From a virus (lineage: Duplodnaviria > Caudoviricetes): a stretch of DNA of 64,000 nucleotides. Positions within the stretch are counted from its first letter, which is position 1. Each line of letters begins with the position of its first letter. The notes beneath the pieces were generated by a model, which had not been told where the DNA came from, did not search any database, and saw nothing but the letters and a program-made list of their open reading frames with translations. The stretch lies in the IMG/VR virus record IMGVR_UViG_3300020079_000007, positions 32,001 through 96,000 of that record; one strand, 5' to 3'. This document shows positions 122-49,081 of this stretch, in pieces. The translations under genes and the position numbers were made by a program.

Positions 122-866
122 TTAACTGTCAAAGCCTGTTTCAACTTTTACGAGGTCTTTAGGTGTTTCCTTTTTAAGTTTTTCAAGCTTTTCTTTGTAC
201 ATTTCAATCTTTCTTTCACAGTCCTCAATGTCTGCTTTATTTTGAAATGAAAGCGGCTTGAAAGATTCCCAGAGCGCACAATTTGATTTATAGCTTTTAG
301 GGTACTTTTTGTAAAAAACATCTTCTGCTTCTTTCTGAGTTTTTGCGAGGATTCTTTCTGTTTCTGTTGATCTTGTTACATCGCTTCGCTTATTGTAACG
401 CCCTTGAACTTCTTCGTGTACATACTGAAAATAATATGCATTTAAGAAAAAGTCCTTTTTTGTCAATTCTTCAGCAGCAGCTTTTATAACAGACTTTTCT
501 TCATCTCTTAATTCAGTATAAGGATGATATGTGTGGTCAAGATGATCTGAATTGTGGCGGGCAACAAAAATCATAATACTCTTCACCTGATACAAACTTT
601 TTAGCTCTTCCTTTATAATCTCCTGTGCTTATTATTGCAGCAATCCAACTTATCTGATAAGTCTCTAAATCTTTATTTGTCAAAACACATACACCATCAG
701 AAGAGTTGACATAAAAAATAAGATATGCATAATTACCAAGCATAAGAGAACGGATTACGATTTCGTTAAGAGGGAGCTCTTCTAAATCAGGTATCTCTAA
801 AACAAAATCGAAGTAGTGATACTGTTCTTGATGAAATTGATTTTTACCGTTTAAGAATTGAGCCAT
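122..866 (-). CDS. Hypothetical protein, probably one gene (ORFs 537..866 and 122..595 joined across a +1 T-run frameshift near 566-570)
   Basis: Removing one T from GATTTTTGTT fuses ...EEYYDF to VARHNSDH... Confidence 0.45.
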
Positions 867-880
867 ATAAAAGCCACCAT

Positions 881-914
881 AAAAAGATAGAGGGTTGACA
901 TAACATCAACCCTC
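881..914 (-). terminator. Intrinsic terminator closing the tmRNA/GIY-YIG/ncRNA unit
   Basis: Minus strand GAGGGTTGA-TGTTATG-TCAACCCTC followed by TATCTTTTT. Confidence 0.7.
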
Positions 915-1300
915 GGGGATTAGCGCACCGCGCTCTGTTCCTCCACCACTTGCTTTTTAGGAAAGCAAGAAAACCGAGGGTGTCCCGATTTCTCGAAACA
1001 ACTTATCCACCACCAATTTTTGAGAAAAATTGGAAAACAACAGTCAAGGAGTAACCATCAACTCTTAACTGTAGTGGGAGAGTGTAGCCACTCAACCCCA
1101 CCGCCAGCAGTTTTCTGTCAAAACTGCAAACTCTCAAAGGGATCCTGAACCTTTAAGAAGTTTCACTTTCACTTTCAGTTGTCCGAACTCAACTAAAGCA
1201 GGGAGGGAAACCGAAAGCAATCCCTATGGGGATAATCTCCACCACCAAGTTTCATTGATGTTTTCAGAAGGAAGCTTCAAAAAACTTGGAAACAAATACC
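915..1300 (-). ncRNA. Unclassified structured RNA with four GUUU-[hairpin]-UGGYGG units
   Basis: No ORF; dense hairpins; G-U pairs and a GAAA tetraloop (TGTTTCGA-GAAA-TCGGGACA) work only on the minus strand; ends in a terminator. Confidence 0.65.
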
Positions 1301-1900
1301 TTAAACTTTACATCGTCCTTTGGAAAAACCATCGGGACAAGTTGCGGATTTTACATTTTTGACTCCGTTAGTCCACCAATGTGTTCCAAACTGACTGTTT
1401 GCAGAACCTTTATGTGATTCTGACATTTTCTTTTTTGACTCTTCAGAAAACTTAAAACCAGTTGTTCCTTTATTGCTATGGTGATTTTTATTGCAATAGT
1501 ACCAACCTTTGTTTCTACCTTCTTTATAAGCCTTTTTCATTGCATCACTCAAATGCTTTTTATATGAGTCAGAACGATAATCAATAAATTTTGAAAGATC
1601 TCCGCCATCACCGCCACTCGCAAGATTGTACTCTGCTTTGCCAATAAGCTTTTGACAGGCTATCATACATCTTTCAAAATGATTTATCTGTTCTTTGGTA
1701 AAAAATCCTGAAATAACAATTGTCTTTTCAAAATTTTCCAAACCATATTTTCTTTGAGCCGCATTTATAAGTCTTCCCGAACCATAATAAATGTCTGTCT
1801 CAAAAGTTCTCCCCTTTCTTAGGGTGTGTTGGCCAATGTAAGTTTTTCCATTAACCAAATTTTTAATCTCATAAATATATCTAATTACTTGTGTTTCCAT
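1301..1900 (-). CDS. GIY-YIG homing endonuclease (Seg-like) with NUMOD3 motif
   Basis: YIYEIKNLVNGKTYIGQH, YYGSG, YNLASGG, FSEESKKKMSESHKG, WWTNG; ACTAATT motif just upstream. Confidence 0.9.
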   Translation of the reverse strand: METQVIRYIYEIKNLVNGKTYIGQHTLRKGRTFETDIYYGSGRLINAAQRKYGLENFEKTIVISGFFTKEQINHFERCMIACQKLIGKAEYNLASGGDGGDLSKFIDYRSDSYKKHLSDAMKKAYKEGRNKGWYYCNKNHHSNKGTTGFKFSEESKKKMSESHKGSANSQFGTHWWTNGVKNVKSATCPDGFSKGRCKV

Positions 1901-1925
1901 AAGTAATTAGTATACTTTGGATCTT

Positions 1926-2306
1926 TGGAGCTGGGGAGAATCGAACTCCCGTCCTATGTAACTGACCGCTAACACTTCTTTACAGGCTTAAACTCCATTA
2001 TTTTAGGCTTAAGGAACGGAGCAAAAACTATAGTTCGGTTGTTGATACAATCTCAGAAGCCACCAATAAACCGCTTCTTTTGAAGGTTGCTCTTTTGTGA
2101 TACAACTCCATTTGGAAAGCAATAGCCGTCTGGGTTGCAACTAAGGGAGTTTATCCCCTTAGGTTAGGCAGCGATTCTTGCGAATACGCTGTTGCTCTTG
2201 CGAGCGAAAACTGAACGTTTTGTTGCAGTTATTTTTGTTCGTATTAAGGTCGACACCTTTACCTGATGTTAGAAACCACTTTACAAGTCGAAACCTGTGC
2301 AGCCCC
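1926..2306 (-). ncRNA. ssrA: tmRNA (one-piece), tag ATKRSVFARKSNSVFARIAA
   Basis: 5' GGGGCTGCACAGGTTTCGAC; 3' GACGGGAGTTCGATTCTCCCCAGCTCCA; G3-U70 acceptor stem; ATAACT-GCA resume context; tag ORF 2164..2226 ends AA-stop; CCA not encoded. Confidence 0.95.
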
Positions 2307-2332
2307 TTATATTTAATATATTAACAAGAACT

Positions 2333-2734
2333 TTAGATTAAGTCCAAAATTCTTCTTAATCTTTCTATGTTCAAGTTTGAAAATTGCTTAATCGTATCAA
2401 CATTTTCAATTCCTGTTGAAGCAAGCTTATCAATGTTTTTCAAATCCTCAATCAAGAATCTGATTGCATCTGATACCAAAGCTTTCATATTTGAAGCAAC
2501 AGTCAAATTTCCGTCTTCGATGTATGGAGCCAACTTTGCGTAAGAGTTGTTTACAAACTTTACGAAGTCAGCTGACTGATGATTGTCGTAAACAGCCTCA
2601 CTAAACTTTTGGAGAATTGTTCTGCTCTCTAAGTCAGAACCTTCTGTAAGTTTTATATAGTAGTTGAGGTTTAGTCTTTCACTAAACATAAGAACTTGTA
2701 AAACATAATTCTTCAAAAGTTTTGTATGATCCAT
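2333..2734 (-). CDS. Hypothetical protein
   Basis: 133 aa ORF with AGGTG RBS. Confidence 0.55.
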   Translation of the reverse strand: MDHTKLLKNYVLQVLMFSERLNLNYYIKLTEGSDLESRTILQKFSEAVYDNHQSADFVKFVNNSYAKLAPYIEDGNLTVASNMKALVSDAIRFLIEDLKNIDKLASTGIENVDTIKQFSNLNIERLRRILDLI

Positions 2735-3211: not shown

Positions 3212-3308
3212 GTCAACTCCAATGAAGGTTTCCCGCTCCTTGGGTCCACCTACAAACCCCGTAAACCATCGGTAAGAACCGACTCAATGCAGGCTGTCAA
3301 CCAACCTG

Positions 3309-3344
3309 ACAATAATAATATAAAGAAGGATAATAAAAAGTATA
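3309..3344 (-). promoter_or_regulatory. Putative early-class promoter TA(A/T)ACTT-N12-CTTTATATTATTATTGT
   Basis: Same motif and spacing at 13812-13847, 28935-28970, 40387-40422, 50914-50949, 61281-61315. Confidence 0.65.
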
Positions 3345-3398
3345 AATTTCTCTTATACTTTTTTTTATTTATCCCCTCCATTATAGTTCAAAAATTCG
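3341..3398 (-). repeat. Dispersed intergenic repeat, copy 1 (core CGAATTTTTGAACTATAATGGAGGG)
   Basis: Identical 25-bp core at 16969 (+) and 58735 (-). Confidence 0.85.
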
Positions 3399-3400
3399 CC

Positions 3401-4006
3401 TTAGTCGTCGTGTTTTTCGCCTTCTCTCCAAGGATTGTATGGGTACATAGCGCCGCATTTTCTACAAATGTTGTATTCTGCGCCGTGCATAATGTTCATA
3501 GGCAATTTTGCATAGCCAAAAACTTTACCGCCGCAGTTAGGACAAGGACCGTTATAGCCGTTAGGAAGTGGGTTGCTTCCCCAAGTTCCTATAACGCCGT
3601 TACTGCCTGAGCCTTCATCTCCATTGCAATATTTTTCAACATCAGCAGCAGATGCCCAAAGATTGCAGTCTTCAACAGTGTAAGAGCCGAGGTCATAATA
3701 GTTATATTTCATCTGACCTACTGTTTGGTCAAGAATGATGACTTCATTATCTTTATTGTCTTCAAACCAATCTTCAAATGAGTCATAGCCTTCTTCTGTA
3801 AGGTCAGTTGATATTTCATCTTTAAGGTCTTCGACTTTACCCATAGCGATAACTTTTGCCTCGGAGTCTTCTCCGAAGCCACCTGTGCCGTGGGCGTAAA
3901 CATCACAACCTGCATCAAGAAGTGACTTCAAATCTTTTTCATTAGTTACTTCTGACATCCCGATTGTTGACTCACGGTATATGTTTTCAAATAACTTGTT
4001 CTCCAT
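3401..4006 (-). CDS. Acidic protein with C-terminal Zn ribbon, putative internal head protein
   Basis: Likely start MENKLFENIYRES; CPNC...CRKC. Confidence 0.55.
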   Translation of the reverse strand: MENKLFENIYRESTIGMSEVTNEKDLKSLLDAGCDVYAHGTGGFGEDSEAKVIAMGKVEDLKDEISTDLTEEGYDSFEDWFEDNKDNEVIILDQTVGQMKYNYYDLGSYTVEDCNLWASAADVEKYCNGDEGSGSNGVIGTWGSNPLPNGYNGPCPNCGGKVFGYAKLPMNIMHGAEYNICRKCGAMYPYNPWREGEKHDD

Positions 4007-13168: not shown

Positions 13169-13486
13169 TTAGTCAATATCACCCCATAATTCAGGATGCT
13201 GCTTCATCATCTTTTTTGCGTTAGGACCCAAACTCCAAAGTCGGGTTTTTTCACTGTACTTCAAAACTCCGATACGTCTAAGATGGGCAAGCTGACAATT
13301 GTTCACACCGTTTACACGACGTACTTGAATCGATCTTTCTTTGGCTCTACTCCAAGCACTTGCCTTTATGTAAGGCTGAACACCCATCTCTTCATTTATC
13401 TGGGCTCGGTTTTGTGGGCCGAGTACATAAATCATATTAACAATTCTGAAAGTAAGCGATGTGCTTTTAATTCTTGGACAAATCAT
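13169..13486 (-). CDS. Putative winged-helix DNA-binding protein
   Basis: Basic; LAHLRRIGVL...WSLG wing. Confidence 0.45.
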   Translation of the reverse strand: MICPRIKSTSLTFRIVNMIYVLGPQNRAQINEEMGVQPYIKASAWSRAKERSIQVRRVNGVNNCQLAHLRRIGVLKYSEKTRLWSLGPNAKKMMKQHPELWGDID

Positions 13487-16177: not shown

Positions 16178-16390
16178 CTATTTTATATCTTTAAGTTTTG
16201 TTGTTTTTATATTAACAAGTCCTGCAAGTCCAGCAAGTGACTTTCTTGTCCATATTTTACCTTTTTTATCCTGTGCGGCATAAAAAGTTGAACCCATAAC
16301 TGTAAACTTGAACAAAGTTGGATAATCTTCATTTCCGTCAATCTGTTTGAAATTTGTCCACGCTTTTGAAATTTCTTCTGGCTTAAGCAT
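16178..16390 (-). CDS. Hypothetical protein
   Basis: Coupled ORF. Confidence 0.5.
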   Translation of the reverse strand: MLKPEEISKAWTNFKQIDGNEDYPTLFKFTVMGSTFYAAQDKKGKIWTRKSLAGLAGLVNIKTTKLKDIK

Positions 16391-31784: not shown

Positions 31785-34097
31785 TCCTGAGAATGCTTTT
31801 GTCATATCGTTCCAAGCATTACCTACATCAGTGCCTGCATTGTTTACGCTCTTAACATAAGCTTCACCACGATCTTTTGCCCACTTTTCTGCTCTTTTCA
31901 TTGGCGTTTGTTTTCCCATAGCATAATCAATTGCAGCATCAATAAACATACCCATTTGTGATGTTACCCAAGTGCCTGCATCATCATAAGTATCAAGTTT
32001 ATAAAATCTTTTGTAAATAAAGTCATAAGTAAAATTAACAGGACCTGCATTTTCTCTTTCAAACTTTATTGCATCTGATGTGCCAAGAATCTTAACATCT
32101 TCAAAAATAAATCTTTCGTCCATCTTATCAGTAAGTTTTGTTCTGAACTTAAAAGATGGTGTTGTTCTTTTTACAATTATGTCAAGTCTTTTTGTGGTTT
32201 TTAATACATTGAACAAGTCATCTTTCTTTGCAGGAGTTGATATAACTGAAATGTTTTTACTTAAAGCTTCAGTAACATAATTGAATCCTGTCTTATCAAA
32301 ATGAAGATTTTTGAGGTCTTGTTTTCTTTTTGTATTAAGCTCCTCTTTTTCTTTATCAAGTTCTTCACAATGGTCATAATATGCTTTTGCGCATTCTTTA
32401 CGCTTATTCCAATGGTCATATATATAAAGAGCTTCAAGATCCTTTTTGTATTCATCAACTTCTGCTTGAATCTTTTTCTTTTCATCTCGTTCAGCTTTAA
32501 GTTTTGCAAAAAAGCCTTCTGCCTTCTCACTATCCGACTTTTCTTTATTCTTTTTCTTCTTTGTATCTTCAATGTATCTTTCAGTATCAAACTGCATCTG
32601 ACTTCTTAAATGTGTGTAGAAGCCACTGAGGTCAGTATGTTCTTTCAAATACTTTTCTTTTTGTTCTTCAACATACTTTTCATACTTATCAGAGTCTTCA
32701 TCAGAAAACTTCGCTTTCTTACCTGCAATAAAGTCATTTACGATTGAAGTAGAGTCTTCTTCCAAAGCAACTTTCCAATCAGCTTCATATTGTTCATCAA
32801 GTTCTTTTTGCTTTTTGAGAATTTCTTCAAGGTGGTCCTCATAATCATCTTGTATCTTTGCAGCAGCTGAGTTCTCTAATCCTTTAGTAATTGCTGAACC
32901 TTTACCAAATAAGTTTGACATATCAGTTCCTGCAAGTTCATTGAATGCTGAAATGTAGGCAAGTTTTGTATCGCCTCTTATTGAGAATGAAGAGCGCCCA
33001 GGTGTGTCAATTCCATCAAGAGGTCTTTCAACAACGCCACTTGCATAATTGATTGTGCCTGATTTTCTTTGATATGCTGGAATGTCGATTGAAGATATAC
33101 GAGCAGATAACAATGTTGATGAGAATAAAGCTTTAATGAATGCTTGTCCTCTGCCAAGCAATTTTGTATCGTGTGTATCATCATCTCTTATTCTGAAGTA
33201 GACATCATACATATTTGACATTGCGTCAGGATAGTTGATTGCTTCCATCTCAGTTAAAGGCTGATTACCAAATTTCATATTTATAACTGGGTCAGCATCA
33301 TAATCAATTGTATCTGAAACTGATGTTGTGTACACATCCTTCATATTGCTGTAATCTGTAGGAGAAGGCGTTACAGGATTTAAGTCAGCTACAGGCTCTT
33401 CCATAACAGGGAGAGGATTTCCTACATCAAGAGGATTTGCTCTTAGCATTGGGATTGCAGGATTTATACCTATACCAGTACCGAACGCACCATCAGATGA
33501 ACTGCCTGTAACTGAGTCTTTTGTATTTTCAGCATAAGAATTGCTATCACCGTCATTCCCGTTTCCGTTACCGCCACCTGAAGAGCTGTTGTTATGATTG
33601 CTTAAGTCATCAACAACACCCTTTAAAACTCCGTATAAAAACTGGGCAGCGCCTTCAGATTCATTTTGATTTACATTACCAATTTTGCCATAATTACTTG
33701 TTGCTTCTGAAAACATTCCTGTTTCAAAACCGTCAGCAATAACATTTACAATCTTTCCATAAGGGTCGCCTGCAGGGCCTGTGATATTGACTTCATTGGC
33801 AATCTCTTCGCCTTTATACCCATTTACATTTCTTTCAGTAAAGATGTCGCCGTTGTTTATAACAGCATTGTCTGTTTCACCATAAGGCGTAGGACCTTGA
33901 GCGCCTGTGTTACTGTTCAAGCTTATTGTTGAGGAACCATCATCTTTTGAAGTTGTCTGACCGTTATATGAAGTTGGACTTGAAAACTTATTTGCGCCAC
34001 TTTCTGGGCCTTTTCCTTTATACTGACCCTCTCCATTTTCAGGAATGTCATCTGGTCCTGATTGGTCAAATATACTTAATCTGTAAGAATCTGCCAT
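31779..34097 (-). CDS. Tail-tube-fold protein (gp48/gp54-like) with a large charged insertion
   Basis: DAMSNMYDV...ARISSIDIP...FIFEDVKILG...FTYDF parallels the tube protein next door. Confidence 0.5.
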   Translation of the reverse strand: MADSYRLSIFDQSGPDDIPENGEGQYKGKGPESGANKFSSPTSYNGQTTSKDDGSSTISLNSNTGAQGPTPYGETDNAVINNGDIFTERNVNGYKGEEIANEVNITGPAGDPYGKIVNVIADGFETGMFSEATSNYGKIGNVNQNESEGAAQFLYGVLKGVVDDLSNHNNSSSGGGNGNGNDGDSNSYAENTKDSVTGSSSDGAFGTGIGINPAIPMLRANPLDVGNPLPVMEEPVADLNPVTPSPTDYSNMKDVYTTSVSDTIDYDADPVINMKFGNQPLTEMEAINYPDAMSNMYDVYFRIRDDDTHDTKLLGRGQAFIKALFSSTLLSARISSIDIPAYQRKSGTINYASGVVERPLDGIDTPGRSSFSIRGDTKLAYISAFNELAGTDMSNLFGKGSAITKGLENSAAAKIQDDYEDHLEEILKKQKELDEQYEADWKVALEEDSTSIVNDFIAGKKAKFSDEDSDKYEKYVEEQKEKYLKEHTDLSGFYTHLRSQMQFDTERYIEDTKKKKNKEKSDSEKAEGFFAKLKAERDEKKKIQAEVDEYKKDLEALYIYDHWNKRKECAKAYYDHCEELDKEKEELNTKRKQDLKNLHFDKTGFNYVTEALSKNISVISTPAKKDDLFNVLKTTKRLDIIVKRTTPSFKFRTKLTDKMDERFIFEDVKILGTSDAIKFERENAGPVNFTYDFIYKRFYKLDTYDDAGTWVTSQMGMFIDAAIDYAMGKQTPMKRAEKWAKDRGEAYVKSVNNAGTDVGNAWNDMTKAFSGL

Positions 34098-49014: not shown

Positions 49015-49081
49015 AATATAGAATATATTAACAAAAAAGGGTACCATTGCGGTACCCATATATTTTTAACTTTTTATTTTG

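Follow-up and report, generated by a model that had tools for sequence, protein, structure and literature searches.

A four-module RNA of the wcaG class behind the tmRNA gene of a jumbo phage

Which RNA class lies behind the transfer-messenger RNA (tmRNA) gene of a large phage, and which partner would its repeated hairpins serve? We address these questions for a structured RNA at positions 1300..915 (minus strand) of a 64,000-nt stretch of viral DNA (hereafter the window), positions 32,001 to 96,000 of IMG/VR record IMGVR_UViG_3300020079_000007 (Caudoviricetes; 188,745 nt, CheckV completeness estimate 65%). An initial annotation, made from the sequence, had presented the element as a structured RNA with four units complementary to tRNA CCA ends, and suggested a decoy for uncharged tRNA 3′ ends or a four-site protein sponge. 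We find that its four hairpin units are very probably modules of wcaG RNA (Rfam RF01761), two of them extra modules of like kind, and that together with a hairpin between modules (P2) and an invariant domain of ~100 nt they make up one non-coding RNA of 310-440 nt; this high confidence covers identity and layout jointly. wcaG has been an orphan riboswitch candidate since 2010, and the relatives described below redirect the search for its partner to translation and tRNA biology.

Four wcaG-type units in one structured RNA

On the minus strand the locus runs from a promoter-like motif through the tmRNA, a 199-aa open reading frame (ORF), the structured RNA, a terminator and an ORF at 866..537. 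A scan of the whole record for TTT followed by a stem of at least 6 pairs, a loop of 3-35 nt and TGGYG returned exactly the four annotated units, all on the minus strand at 941-1293; 20 shuffled genomes gave 0-2 matches each (mean ~0.2). Region 1305..880 has a predicted folding energy of −150.9 kcal/mol (z = −5.5 versus dinucleotide shuffles), in keeping with the annotation of a structured non-coding RNA, and the terminator described after the units is found at 914..890 with a U tract. The features of the RNA are as follows.

1293..1237, minus strand: unit 1, GUUU, stem CCAAGUUU/AAACUUGG (8-9 bp, loop of 27-31 nt), tail UGGUGGAG; an optional 5′ appendage
1227..1128, minus strand: central domain, two irregular hairpins, nearly invariant across five aligned alleles
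1131..1099, minus strand: unit 2, GUUU, stem GCAGUUUU/AAAACUGC, tail UGGCGGUG
1041..1098, minus strand: variable hairpins between units 2 and 3
934..1041, minus strand: complete wcaG motif (Rfam RF01761), unit 3 + P2 + unit 4
1038..1005, minus strand: unit 3, GUUUU, stem CCAAUUUUU/AAAAAUUGG, tail UGGUGGAU
1000..981, minus strand: P2, GNRA-capped hairpin UGUUUCGA-GAAA-UCGGGACA
974..941, minus strand: unit 4, GUUUU, stem CUUGCUUU/AAAGCAAG (the canonical wcaG stem), tail UGGUGGAG
1224..1219 with 921..916, minus strand: predicted long-range helix GGGAUU/AAUCCC (RNAalifold), closing a core of ~310 nt
880..914, minus strand: intrinsic terminator, 11-pair stem with a 3-nt loop at 914..890, plus U tract

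In an E-value-limited Rfam search RF01761 matched 1041..934 over model positions 1-98 of 98 (41.5 bits, E = 1.8e−6; gathering score 42 bits), and two orthologous copies lie above the cut-off: L003 with 42.3 bits and that on G001:C130, the contig of L147, with 42.6 bits. In substance, this is the match to a known Rfam family that the initial annotation had named as a refutation, and novelty is not supported. The Rfam consensus reads GUUU-hairpin-UGGUG, P2, GUUU-hairpin-UGGCG. The class was described (Weinberg et al. 2010, PMC2864571) as a riboswitch candidate that occurs in T4-like cyanophages and marine samples, where it precedes exopolysaccharide or high-light genes; the supplement of that paper already noted the doubled UGGYG of the hairpins and proposed a dimeric protein. 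The later literature that we found leaves the label unchanged, as a cis-regulator of exopolysaccharide or high-light genes.

We considered units 1 and 2 as a second full wcaG copy and rejected this, since the region around unit 2 scores just 14.3 bits (E = 3.7) and the spacer of ~100 nt is unrelated conserved sequence. In L147, which has a short linker, units 2 and 3 reach 33.3 bits for wcaG, and tandem double matches occur in the cyanophage-like contigs L095, L123, L132 and L133. The central domain has no Rfam match; at its 3′ end stands AGUUU, which doubles as the unit 2 flank and in the consensus fold is paired to AAACU. The pairs of the long-range helix GGGAUU/AAUCCC are invariant among alleles and hence allow no covariation test. 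Coding potential (ORFs of 44 and 42 aa) was ruled out, as the frames are disrupted from allele to allele by indels whose lengths are not divisible by three. A blastn search of 850-2350 against GenBank phages returned no match.

The tmRNA locus and its sister alleles

The genes and signals around the RNA are the following.

2318..2327, minus strand: promoter-like motif TTGTTAATAT, directly upstream of the tmRNA; putative promoter
2306..1926, minus strand: tmRNA with tag ATKRSVFARKSNSVFARIAA (ARAGORN; Rfam RF00023, 88.2 bits)
1900..1301, minus strand: GIY-YIG/NUMOD3 homing endonuclease, 199 aa (phrog_314, E = 1.8e−22; PF19835, PF07460)
537..866, minus strand: first ORF past the terminator, 109 aa (124-127 aa in relatives), always downstream of the RNA

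The Rfam tmRNA model is complete at 2306..1925, and the wcaG-type RNA falls 3′ of the tmRNA, outside the molecule. The tmRNA acceptor 3′ strand is CAGCUCC plus discriminator A, with CCA not encoded. The expected mature end, CUCCACCA, is the exact complement of UGGUGGAG, so that the annotated match between two units and this end holds. With up to one mismatch, TTGTTAATAT occurs 26 times in the window against 13.6 expected (for example at 2318-2327, 13434-13443, 16209-16218 and 49025-49034), it is also conserved 5′ of the tmRNA in L003, and it is probably a phage promoter element. From the site upstream of the tmRNA down to the ORF at 866 we found no further copy, and no convincing sigma-70 promoter on the minus strand between tmRNA and that ORF.

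Searching by protein and with a pattern derived from the tmRNA tag, we found sister alleles that differ in the endonuclease gene, which the initial annotation had missed, and in unit 1.

Window allele: endonuclease gene present, unit 1 present
L139/L138: endonuclease gene absent, unit 1 present
L003 = L135 = L136: endonuclease gene absent, unit 1 present with a short loop
L137: endonuclease gene absent, unit 1 absent
L147: endonuclease gene present, unit 1 absent

In the endonuclease-free alleles (L003/L135, L137, L138/L139) the RNA starts within the first few bases past the tmRNA discriminator, which confirms its annotated position behind the tmRNA. The endonuclease gene, which separates the two in the window, forms a polymorphic insertion just after the discriminator; the window and L147 carry two diverged versions at the identical site, where the RNA would be the 3′ untranslated region (UTR) of the endonuclease mRNA. 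A group I intron with a homing endonuclease was rejected, with no Rfam intron match; as tmRNA and RNA are contiguous and intact in the alleles that lack the gene, the endonuclease gene is free-standing. A 13-bp hairpin (CUAAUUACUUAUGGAAACACAAGUAAUUAG; 1881-1910, minus strand) buries its start codon, reminiscent of the way in which translation of other homing endonucleases of phages is known to be occluded.

Comparison of the window with L003 identifies the RNA as the best-conserved part of the locus: identity is 51.5% upstream, 65.6% in the tmRNA, 88.1% in the core RNA, where the difference is mostly one hairpin indel, and 73.5% in the ORF. The RNA is under strong purifying selection; in this jumbo-phage lineage a wcaG-class RNA is firmly joined to the tmRNA gene and exceeds the tmRNA in conservation. 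Across alleles, conservation extends to units 3 and 4, to P2 and the small hairpin, and to the terminator (the last in L003, L137, L139 and L147). Within this kept part L137 shows a compensatory U-A to C-G change in unit 3 (RNAalifold alignment columns 277/289), a wobble-preserving C-G to U-G change in unit 4 and a U-G to U-A change in P2 with the hairpin retained. The stem between units 2 and 3 reads GAGUG/CACUC in the window, GGGUG/CGCCC in L138 and GGUG/CACC in L139; hairpins of this region are deleted or replaced in L003, L137 and L147. The alleles show that unit 1 is dispensable.

By allele comparison, the UGGCG of unit 2 is one strand of a helix. In the window the tail UGGCGGU pairs with ACUGUU just before unit 3; the corresponding pairs are GUCGG/CCGAU in L003, CGGUC/GACUG in L147 and UGACAGUC/GACUGU in L137, where UGGCG is replaced by UGACAG and pairing to the downstream strand is retained. 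The helix survives G-U to A-U and G-U to U-A changes.

The allele L147 belongs to a 306-kb contig (G001:C130) of a Candidatus Fimenecus (Clostridia) metagenome-assembled genome (MAG). A window protein whose gene stands at a distance of 40 kb has a 95%-identical counterpart on this contig, which is therefore a near-complete relative of the window phage. It holds ~43 tRNAs in one array (205,700-217,800), ~177 kb from the tmRNA-wcaG locus (~28,300); as the RNA adjoins the tmRNA at this distance from the array, its link here is specifically to tmRNA. The window record probably lacks such an array.

The ORF at 866 and its neighbours match nothing in Pfam or PHROGs. Its version in relatives overlaps (ATGA) a conserved 160-aa ORF. 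The window version diverges at the 3′ end (537-600) and is followed by an unrelated 157-aa ORF (122-595), and the divergent end suggests a local replacement or rearrangement. A fifth UGGUGG at 875-882 (minus strand) stands 9-16 nt before the AUG at 866, at the position of a ribosome-binding site (AUGGUGGC); the same site reads ACGGUGGC in L003 and L147 and ACGGCGGC in L137. This UGGUGG may act as a weak Shine-Dalgarno sequence or be a further copy of the motif.

A candidate conditional terminator

We propose that the RNA acts in cis as a conditional terminator controlled by a partner at the UGGY junction. From the layout, it would be the 3′ trailer of the phage tmRNA as well as the leader of the next operon: transcription would start at the tmRNA promoter, tRNA-type 3′ maturation of the CCA-less tmRNA would release the RNA, and the terminator at 914..890 would end it. 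Two strands could form a helix that competes with this terminator.

981..974, minus strand: candidate antiterminator 5′ strand ACCCUCGG, a perfect 8-nt complement of 916..909
916..909, minus strand: candidate antiterminator 3′ strand CCGAGGGU, overlapping the terminator 5′ arm

The 8-bp helix ACCCUCGG/CCGAGGGU would close a three-way junction around unit 4 and the small hairpin, with joining strand UGGUGGAGGAACAG, and would exclude the terminator 5′ arm. In the terminator form, CCUC of ACCCUCGG is predicted to pair with GAGG of the unit-4 tail. A partner on the UGGY-bearing junction would free CCCUC from the tail and so permit read-through into the downstream ORFs; candidates are a repeat-binding protein and a tRNA/tmRNA 3′ end. 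The predicted energy of the terminator form is −57.3 kcal/mol unconstrained and −47.9 kcal/mol with both tails blocked, and that of the forced antiterminator is −48.3 kcal/mol. With the tails blocked the two forms are about level, so a partner that occupies the tails could tip the balance to read-through. We estimate the chance of an 8-nt complement overlapping the terminator arm at ~0.01-0.02.

Several observations weigh against this proposal. The window copy of wcaG falls 0.5 bit under the gathering score. At equilibrium the unconstrained terminator form is 9 kcal/mol more stable. Antiterminator, tail pairing and terminator are invariant in all alleles and have no covariation support. The cyanophage loci show no consistent antiterminator between wcaG and the following terminator, so cis-attenuation is not a general property of wcaG. 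The near-perfect conservation of the 100-nt domain goes beyond a simple attenuator, and there could be a trans-acting partner. The case for a switch consists of complementarity and predicted energetics. We therefore hold the partner-controlled terminator tentatively, as a possibility that falls somewhat short of an even chance; the reading as a whole, a wcaG-class tmRNA trailer with cis attenuation, comes close to one. Unit 4, the antiterminator and the terminator together make a compact construct on which it can be tested.

Structure of the unit and the UGGY tail

To describe the unit without bias for the tail, we collected 881 distinct hairpins of at least 7 pairs preceded by UUU in viral loci. 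UGG is the next triplet in 141 of the 881, and the base after it is then U in 88, C in 51, A in 2 and G in none. A pyrimidine thus follows UGG in 139 of 141 cases, and UGGY is under real constraint. Four tail types dominate: UGGUGCGG, UGGUGGAG, UGGCGAGC and UGGCGUGC.

In canonical units of the UGGC type, the start of the loop is complementary to the sequence 5′ of the U run: its first four bases pair with the four that precede the run, with four of four pairs in 84% of distinct sequences. The mean is 3.67 pairs versus 2.83 for shuffled partners, and at least 10 different complementary combinations occur; examples from canonical wcaG loci (L004-L134) are CUGG/CCAG, CAGG/CCUG, CUAG/CUAG and CGAG/CUCG. 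From this pairing and its covariation, canonical units are H-type pseudoknots, in which UUU forms loop 1 over a stem with a purine-rich 3′ strand. The flank-loop pairing is absent from the structure line that cmscan prints for the Rfam wcaG model. The window units have loops of 3-5 nt and at most GG/CC of the extra pseudoknot stem (unit 4).

Where linkers are short, as in L147 and the canonical motif, the next helix begins at tail position 4-5 and leaves UGG(Y) as an inter-helix junction, a placement like that of the T-box bulge. This and the near-invariance of UGGY favour a reading in which UGGY, flanked by a helix on either side, would base-pair with the single-stranded 3′ NCCA that an uncharged tRNA or tmRNA exposes, whether as a multivalent sponge or as a sensor driving the antiterminator. 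Y would pair with a purine discriminator, and UGGUGGA(G) would extend the match to the alanine-type UCCACCA of tmRNA and tRNA-Ala. In favour of the reading, UGGUGGAG is exactly complementary (8/8) to the mature tmRNA end of four alleles (window, L137, L139, L147), and among 211 distinct phage tRNAs UGGUGCGG matches Leu, Val and Met ends and UGGUGGAG matches tRNA-Ala. The UGGCG tail types UGGCGAGC and UGGCGUGC, however, match 0 of the 211 ends.

The alleles are less accommodating. Unit 1 is absent in L137 and L147, and unit 2 of L137 has lost UGGCG yet kept its helix. The tmRNA end of L003 is GUCCACCA, but its tails still read UGGUGGAG, the eighth tail base not following the acceptor change; L021 likewise sets a tail UGGUGGAA against a tmRNA end CUCCACCA. 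A unit past a G73 tRNA-Asp (L112) reads UGGU, so the fourth base does not covary with the discriminator, and the tmRNA-linked array includes UGGC though the tmRNA has A73. Parts of tails 2 and 4 pair internally in the consensus fold, as does tail 3 in the single-sequence minimum free energy fold. These points weaken the picture of four equivalent anti-CCA sites. In addition, pairing past NCCA would need a melted acceptor stem and four pairs alone are weak, no specifier-like second contact is seen, and no Rfam T-box match was returned up to E = 10 in 700..2400 or 880..1320.

We consider NCCA pairing in either role improbable, and its extension to the alanine-type end equally so. The same low estimate attaches to a broader form of the idea, in which the whole wcaG class would be an RNA device gripping the 3′ NCCA of uncharged tRNA or tmRNA, with a 4-bp helix stacked between unit helix and acceptor stem after the manner of the T-box discriminator. 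The UGGUGGAG units of this phage would then be tuned to its own alanine-type tmRNA end, and the trailer would read the level or charging of mature tmRNA or tRNA-Ala and set read-through at 914..890. Were the partner a tRNA end, wcaG would represent a new class of tRNA-sensing RNA used by phages, the first sensor outside T-boxes to read the CCA end only, and a 16-year-old orphan would be solved.

wcaG-type units lie in tRNA and tmRNA islands

A search with a canonical-hairpin pattern gave more than 119 viral loci. Of 120 wcaG-type loci, 106 hold a tRNA or tmRNA within the fetched sequence, the nearest one always on the same strand; it is within 1 kb in 85 and within 300 nt in 34. At least seven phage lineages have wcaG-type units in tRNA/tmRNA islands, with the same orientation as these genes. 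We found no mention of this association in the literature on wcaG. In named cyanophages, the motif stands 90 nt before tRNA-Gly (S-RSM4) or inside the tRNA region (Syn1). Among the loci as a whole, some units lie 50-110 nt before tRNAs. Outside cyanophages, single or double units occur 3-6 nt past tRNA-Pro, tRNA-Gln or tRNA-Asp (L043, L071, L112/L120). With respect to tmRNA, a unit lies a few bases past it in L021, 133 nt past it in a Mycobacterium contig (L163) and 460 nt before it in L128. L054 (IMGVR_UViG_3300033463_000016) has a 489-nt tmRNA (3284-3772, minus strand; 87.5 bits, full Rfam model) that contains an above-threshold wcaG pair (48 bits, 3476-3568) past the tag frame; here the place of the tmRNA pseudoknots seems to be taken by wcaG-type units.

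In contigs of Treponema/Spirochaetaceae MAGs (L170 5980-6698; L142, L160, L167), a single unit with tail UGGUGGGG stands ~30 nt before an RNA ligase gene (PF09414, E = 8e−23), unit and ligase both within tRNA islands. Its place in the 5′ UTR of the ligase gene suggests cis-regulatory use elsewhere. We rejected an RNA ligase neighbourhood as a general wcaG feature, for only the Treponema-type loci have one. A 251-aa ORF just upstream in these loci is metallophosphoesterase-like by motif only and has no Pfam match. Most of 33 pattern matches in bacterial genomes are chance matches inside coding regions that lack UGGYG.

The wcaG family is therefore not confined to cyanophages, its constant neighbourhood is tRNA/tmRNA genes, not a metabolic pathway, and it has a modular make-up of pseudoknot or hairpin units. 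The linkage also counts for NCCA pairing, above all where units directly follow tRNAs, follow or enter a tmRNA, or stand in the leader of a tRNA-repair-type RNA ligase; by neighbourhood, the partner candidates are a tRNA/tmRNA 3′ end and a tRNA-handling protein. The exopolysaccharide-regulator label is doubtful. In many cyanophage loci, L004, L010, L014 and L030 among them, the loop of the terminator past wcaG contains TTGACA, and TATAAT follows directly on the U tract; because the terminator overlaps this sigma-70-like promoter, the supposed wcaG targets downstream are probably transcribed from a promoter of their own.

These observations also bear on a small-molecule riboswitch, in which the pseudoknot unit, or a pair of units, would be a metabolite aptamer controlling the terminator. 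The original rating of wcaG as a riboswitch candidate (Weinberg et al. 2010, PMC2864571) favours this, as does the canonical fold, an H-type pseudoknot with U-rich loop 1 and purine-rich 3′ strand being a common riboswitch architecture; here, moreover, a terminator with a competing helix follows. The downstream genes, however, are unrelated among lineages (sugar-nucleotide genes, hli, tRNAs, RNA ligase, an ORF of no known family), the cyanophage gene often has its own promoter past the terminator, and the short-looped window units have at most 2 bp of pseudoknot stem. We judge a metabolite aptamer very unlikely.

Positions right past tRNA/tmRNA 3′ ends, or 50-110 nt before tRNAs, would suit a passive processing or stability element, a trailer that defines and protects the ends of the tmRNA (and endonuclease) transcript, for instance by blocking exonucleases or letting RNases enter, with no sensing. 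Pseudoknots and hairpins are exonuclease barriers, and in the window and L147 the RNA would form the 3′ UTR of the endonuclease mRNA. Against a passive role, the element occurs once per tRNA island and not between every tRNA, and the invariance of UGGY, GUUU and the 100-nt domain goes far beyond the needs of stability; we regard such a role as rather improbable.

With a trans-acting protein platform, strong primary-sequence conservation of the core would fit a fixed partner. Here the ~400-nt RNA would be freed from the tmRNA as a stable ribonucleoprotein scaffold or sponge, and the repeated GUUU-hairpin-UGGYG would bind a dimeric or multimeric host or phage protein, along the lines of the dimer already proposed for the doubled UGGYG (Weinberg et al. 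2010, PMC2864571). The number of modules per phage ranges from 1 to 5, cyanophage genomes have ~1-2 wcaG-type copies each, as a gene would (85 places in 82 records), and the islands are shared with free-standing RNAs, GOLLD in L021, L043, L112, L120 and L131 and ROOL in L100. We nevertheless think this platform unlikely: no candidate protein co-occurs across lineages, the downstream ORF being lineage-specific and of no family, and only two of the four sites are strictly kept.

Of greater value, in our view, are the results that apply beyond this locus: linkage to tRNA and tmRNA genes, units built as pseudoknots, and doubt over the exopolysaccharide label.

Comparison with known systems

GOLLD and ROOL resemble the present RNA as large or modular phage non-coding RNAs among same-strand tRNA genes; they share no sequence or structure similarity with it, and neither has an Rfam match in the window. 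The string of pseudoknots PK2-PK4 in tmRNA and the upstream-pseudoknot domains of viruses likewise consist of several H-type pseudoknots or hairpins in physical connection with a tRNA-like molecule. In the window, by contrast, the tmRNA model ends at 1925 and the array follows outside the molecule, from which 3′ maturation would detach it, and tmRNA pseudoknots in general lack the conserved UGGY and GUUU of wcaG units.

The T-box antiterminator shares with the window RNA an inter-helix element of the UGGN type, a helix, predicted here, in competition with an intrinsic terminator, and a genomic link to tRNA. Unlike a T-box, the window RNA has no Stem I, no specifier loop and no conserved 14-nt T-box sequence; it has several modules where the T-box has one, and it shows no covariation of the fourth base with the discriminator.

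The closest likeness is to wcaG RNA. In both, hairpins P1 and P3 are each followed by UGGYG (UGGUG in units 1, 3 and 4 and UGGCG in unit 2), GUUU stands immediately 5′ of every hairpin, in all four units here, and U-A pairs top the stems. Both are phage-borne, with covarying stems, P2 between two modules and a terminator downstream, and unit 4 has the consensus stem CUUGCUU/AAGCAAG. The differences are that the window RNA has four modules plus the invariant 100-nt domain, is fused to a tmRNA 3′ end and stands upstream of an ORF of no known family rather than exopolysaccharide or high-light genes; its loops, at 3-5 nt, are too short to form the flank-loop pseudoknot that canonical units have, and its score lies right at the family threshold. 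Its carrier is a jumbo phage of ~300 kb from gut/rumen-type metagenome assemblies, with a relative binned in a Clostridia MAG, and not a T4-like marine cyanophage. The wcaG class itself was already known, and what is new is its tmRNA-fused, four-module, non-cyanophage form.

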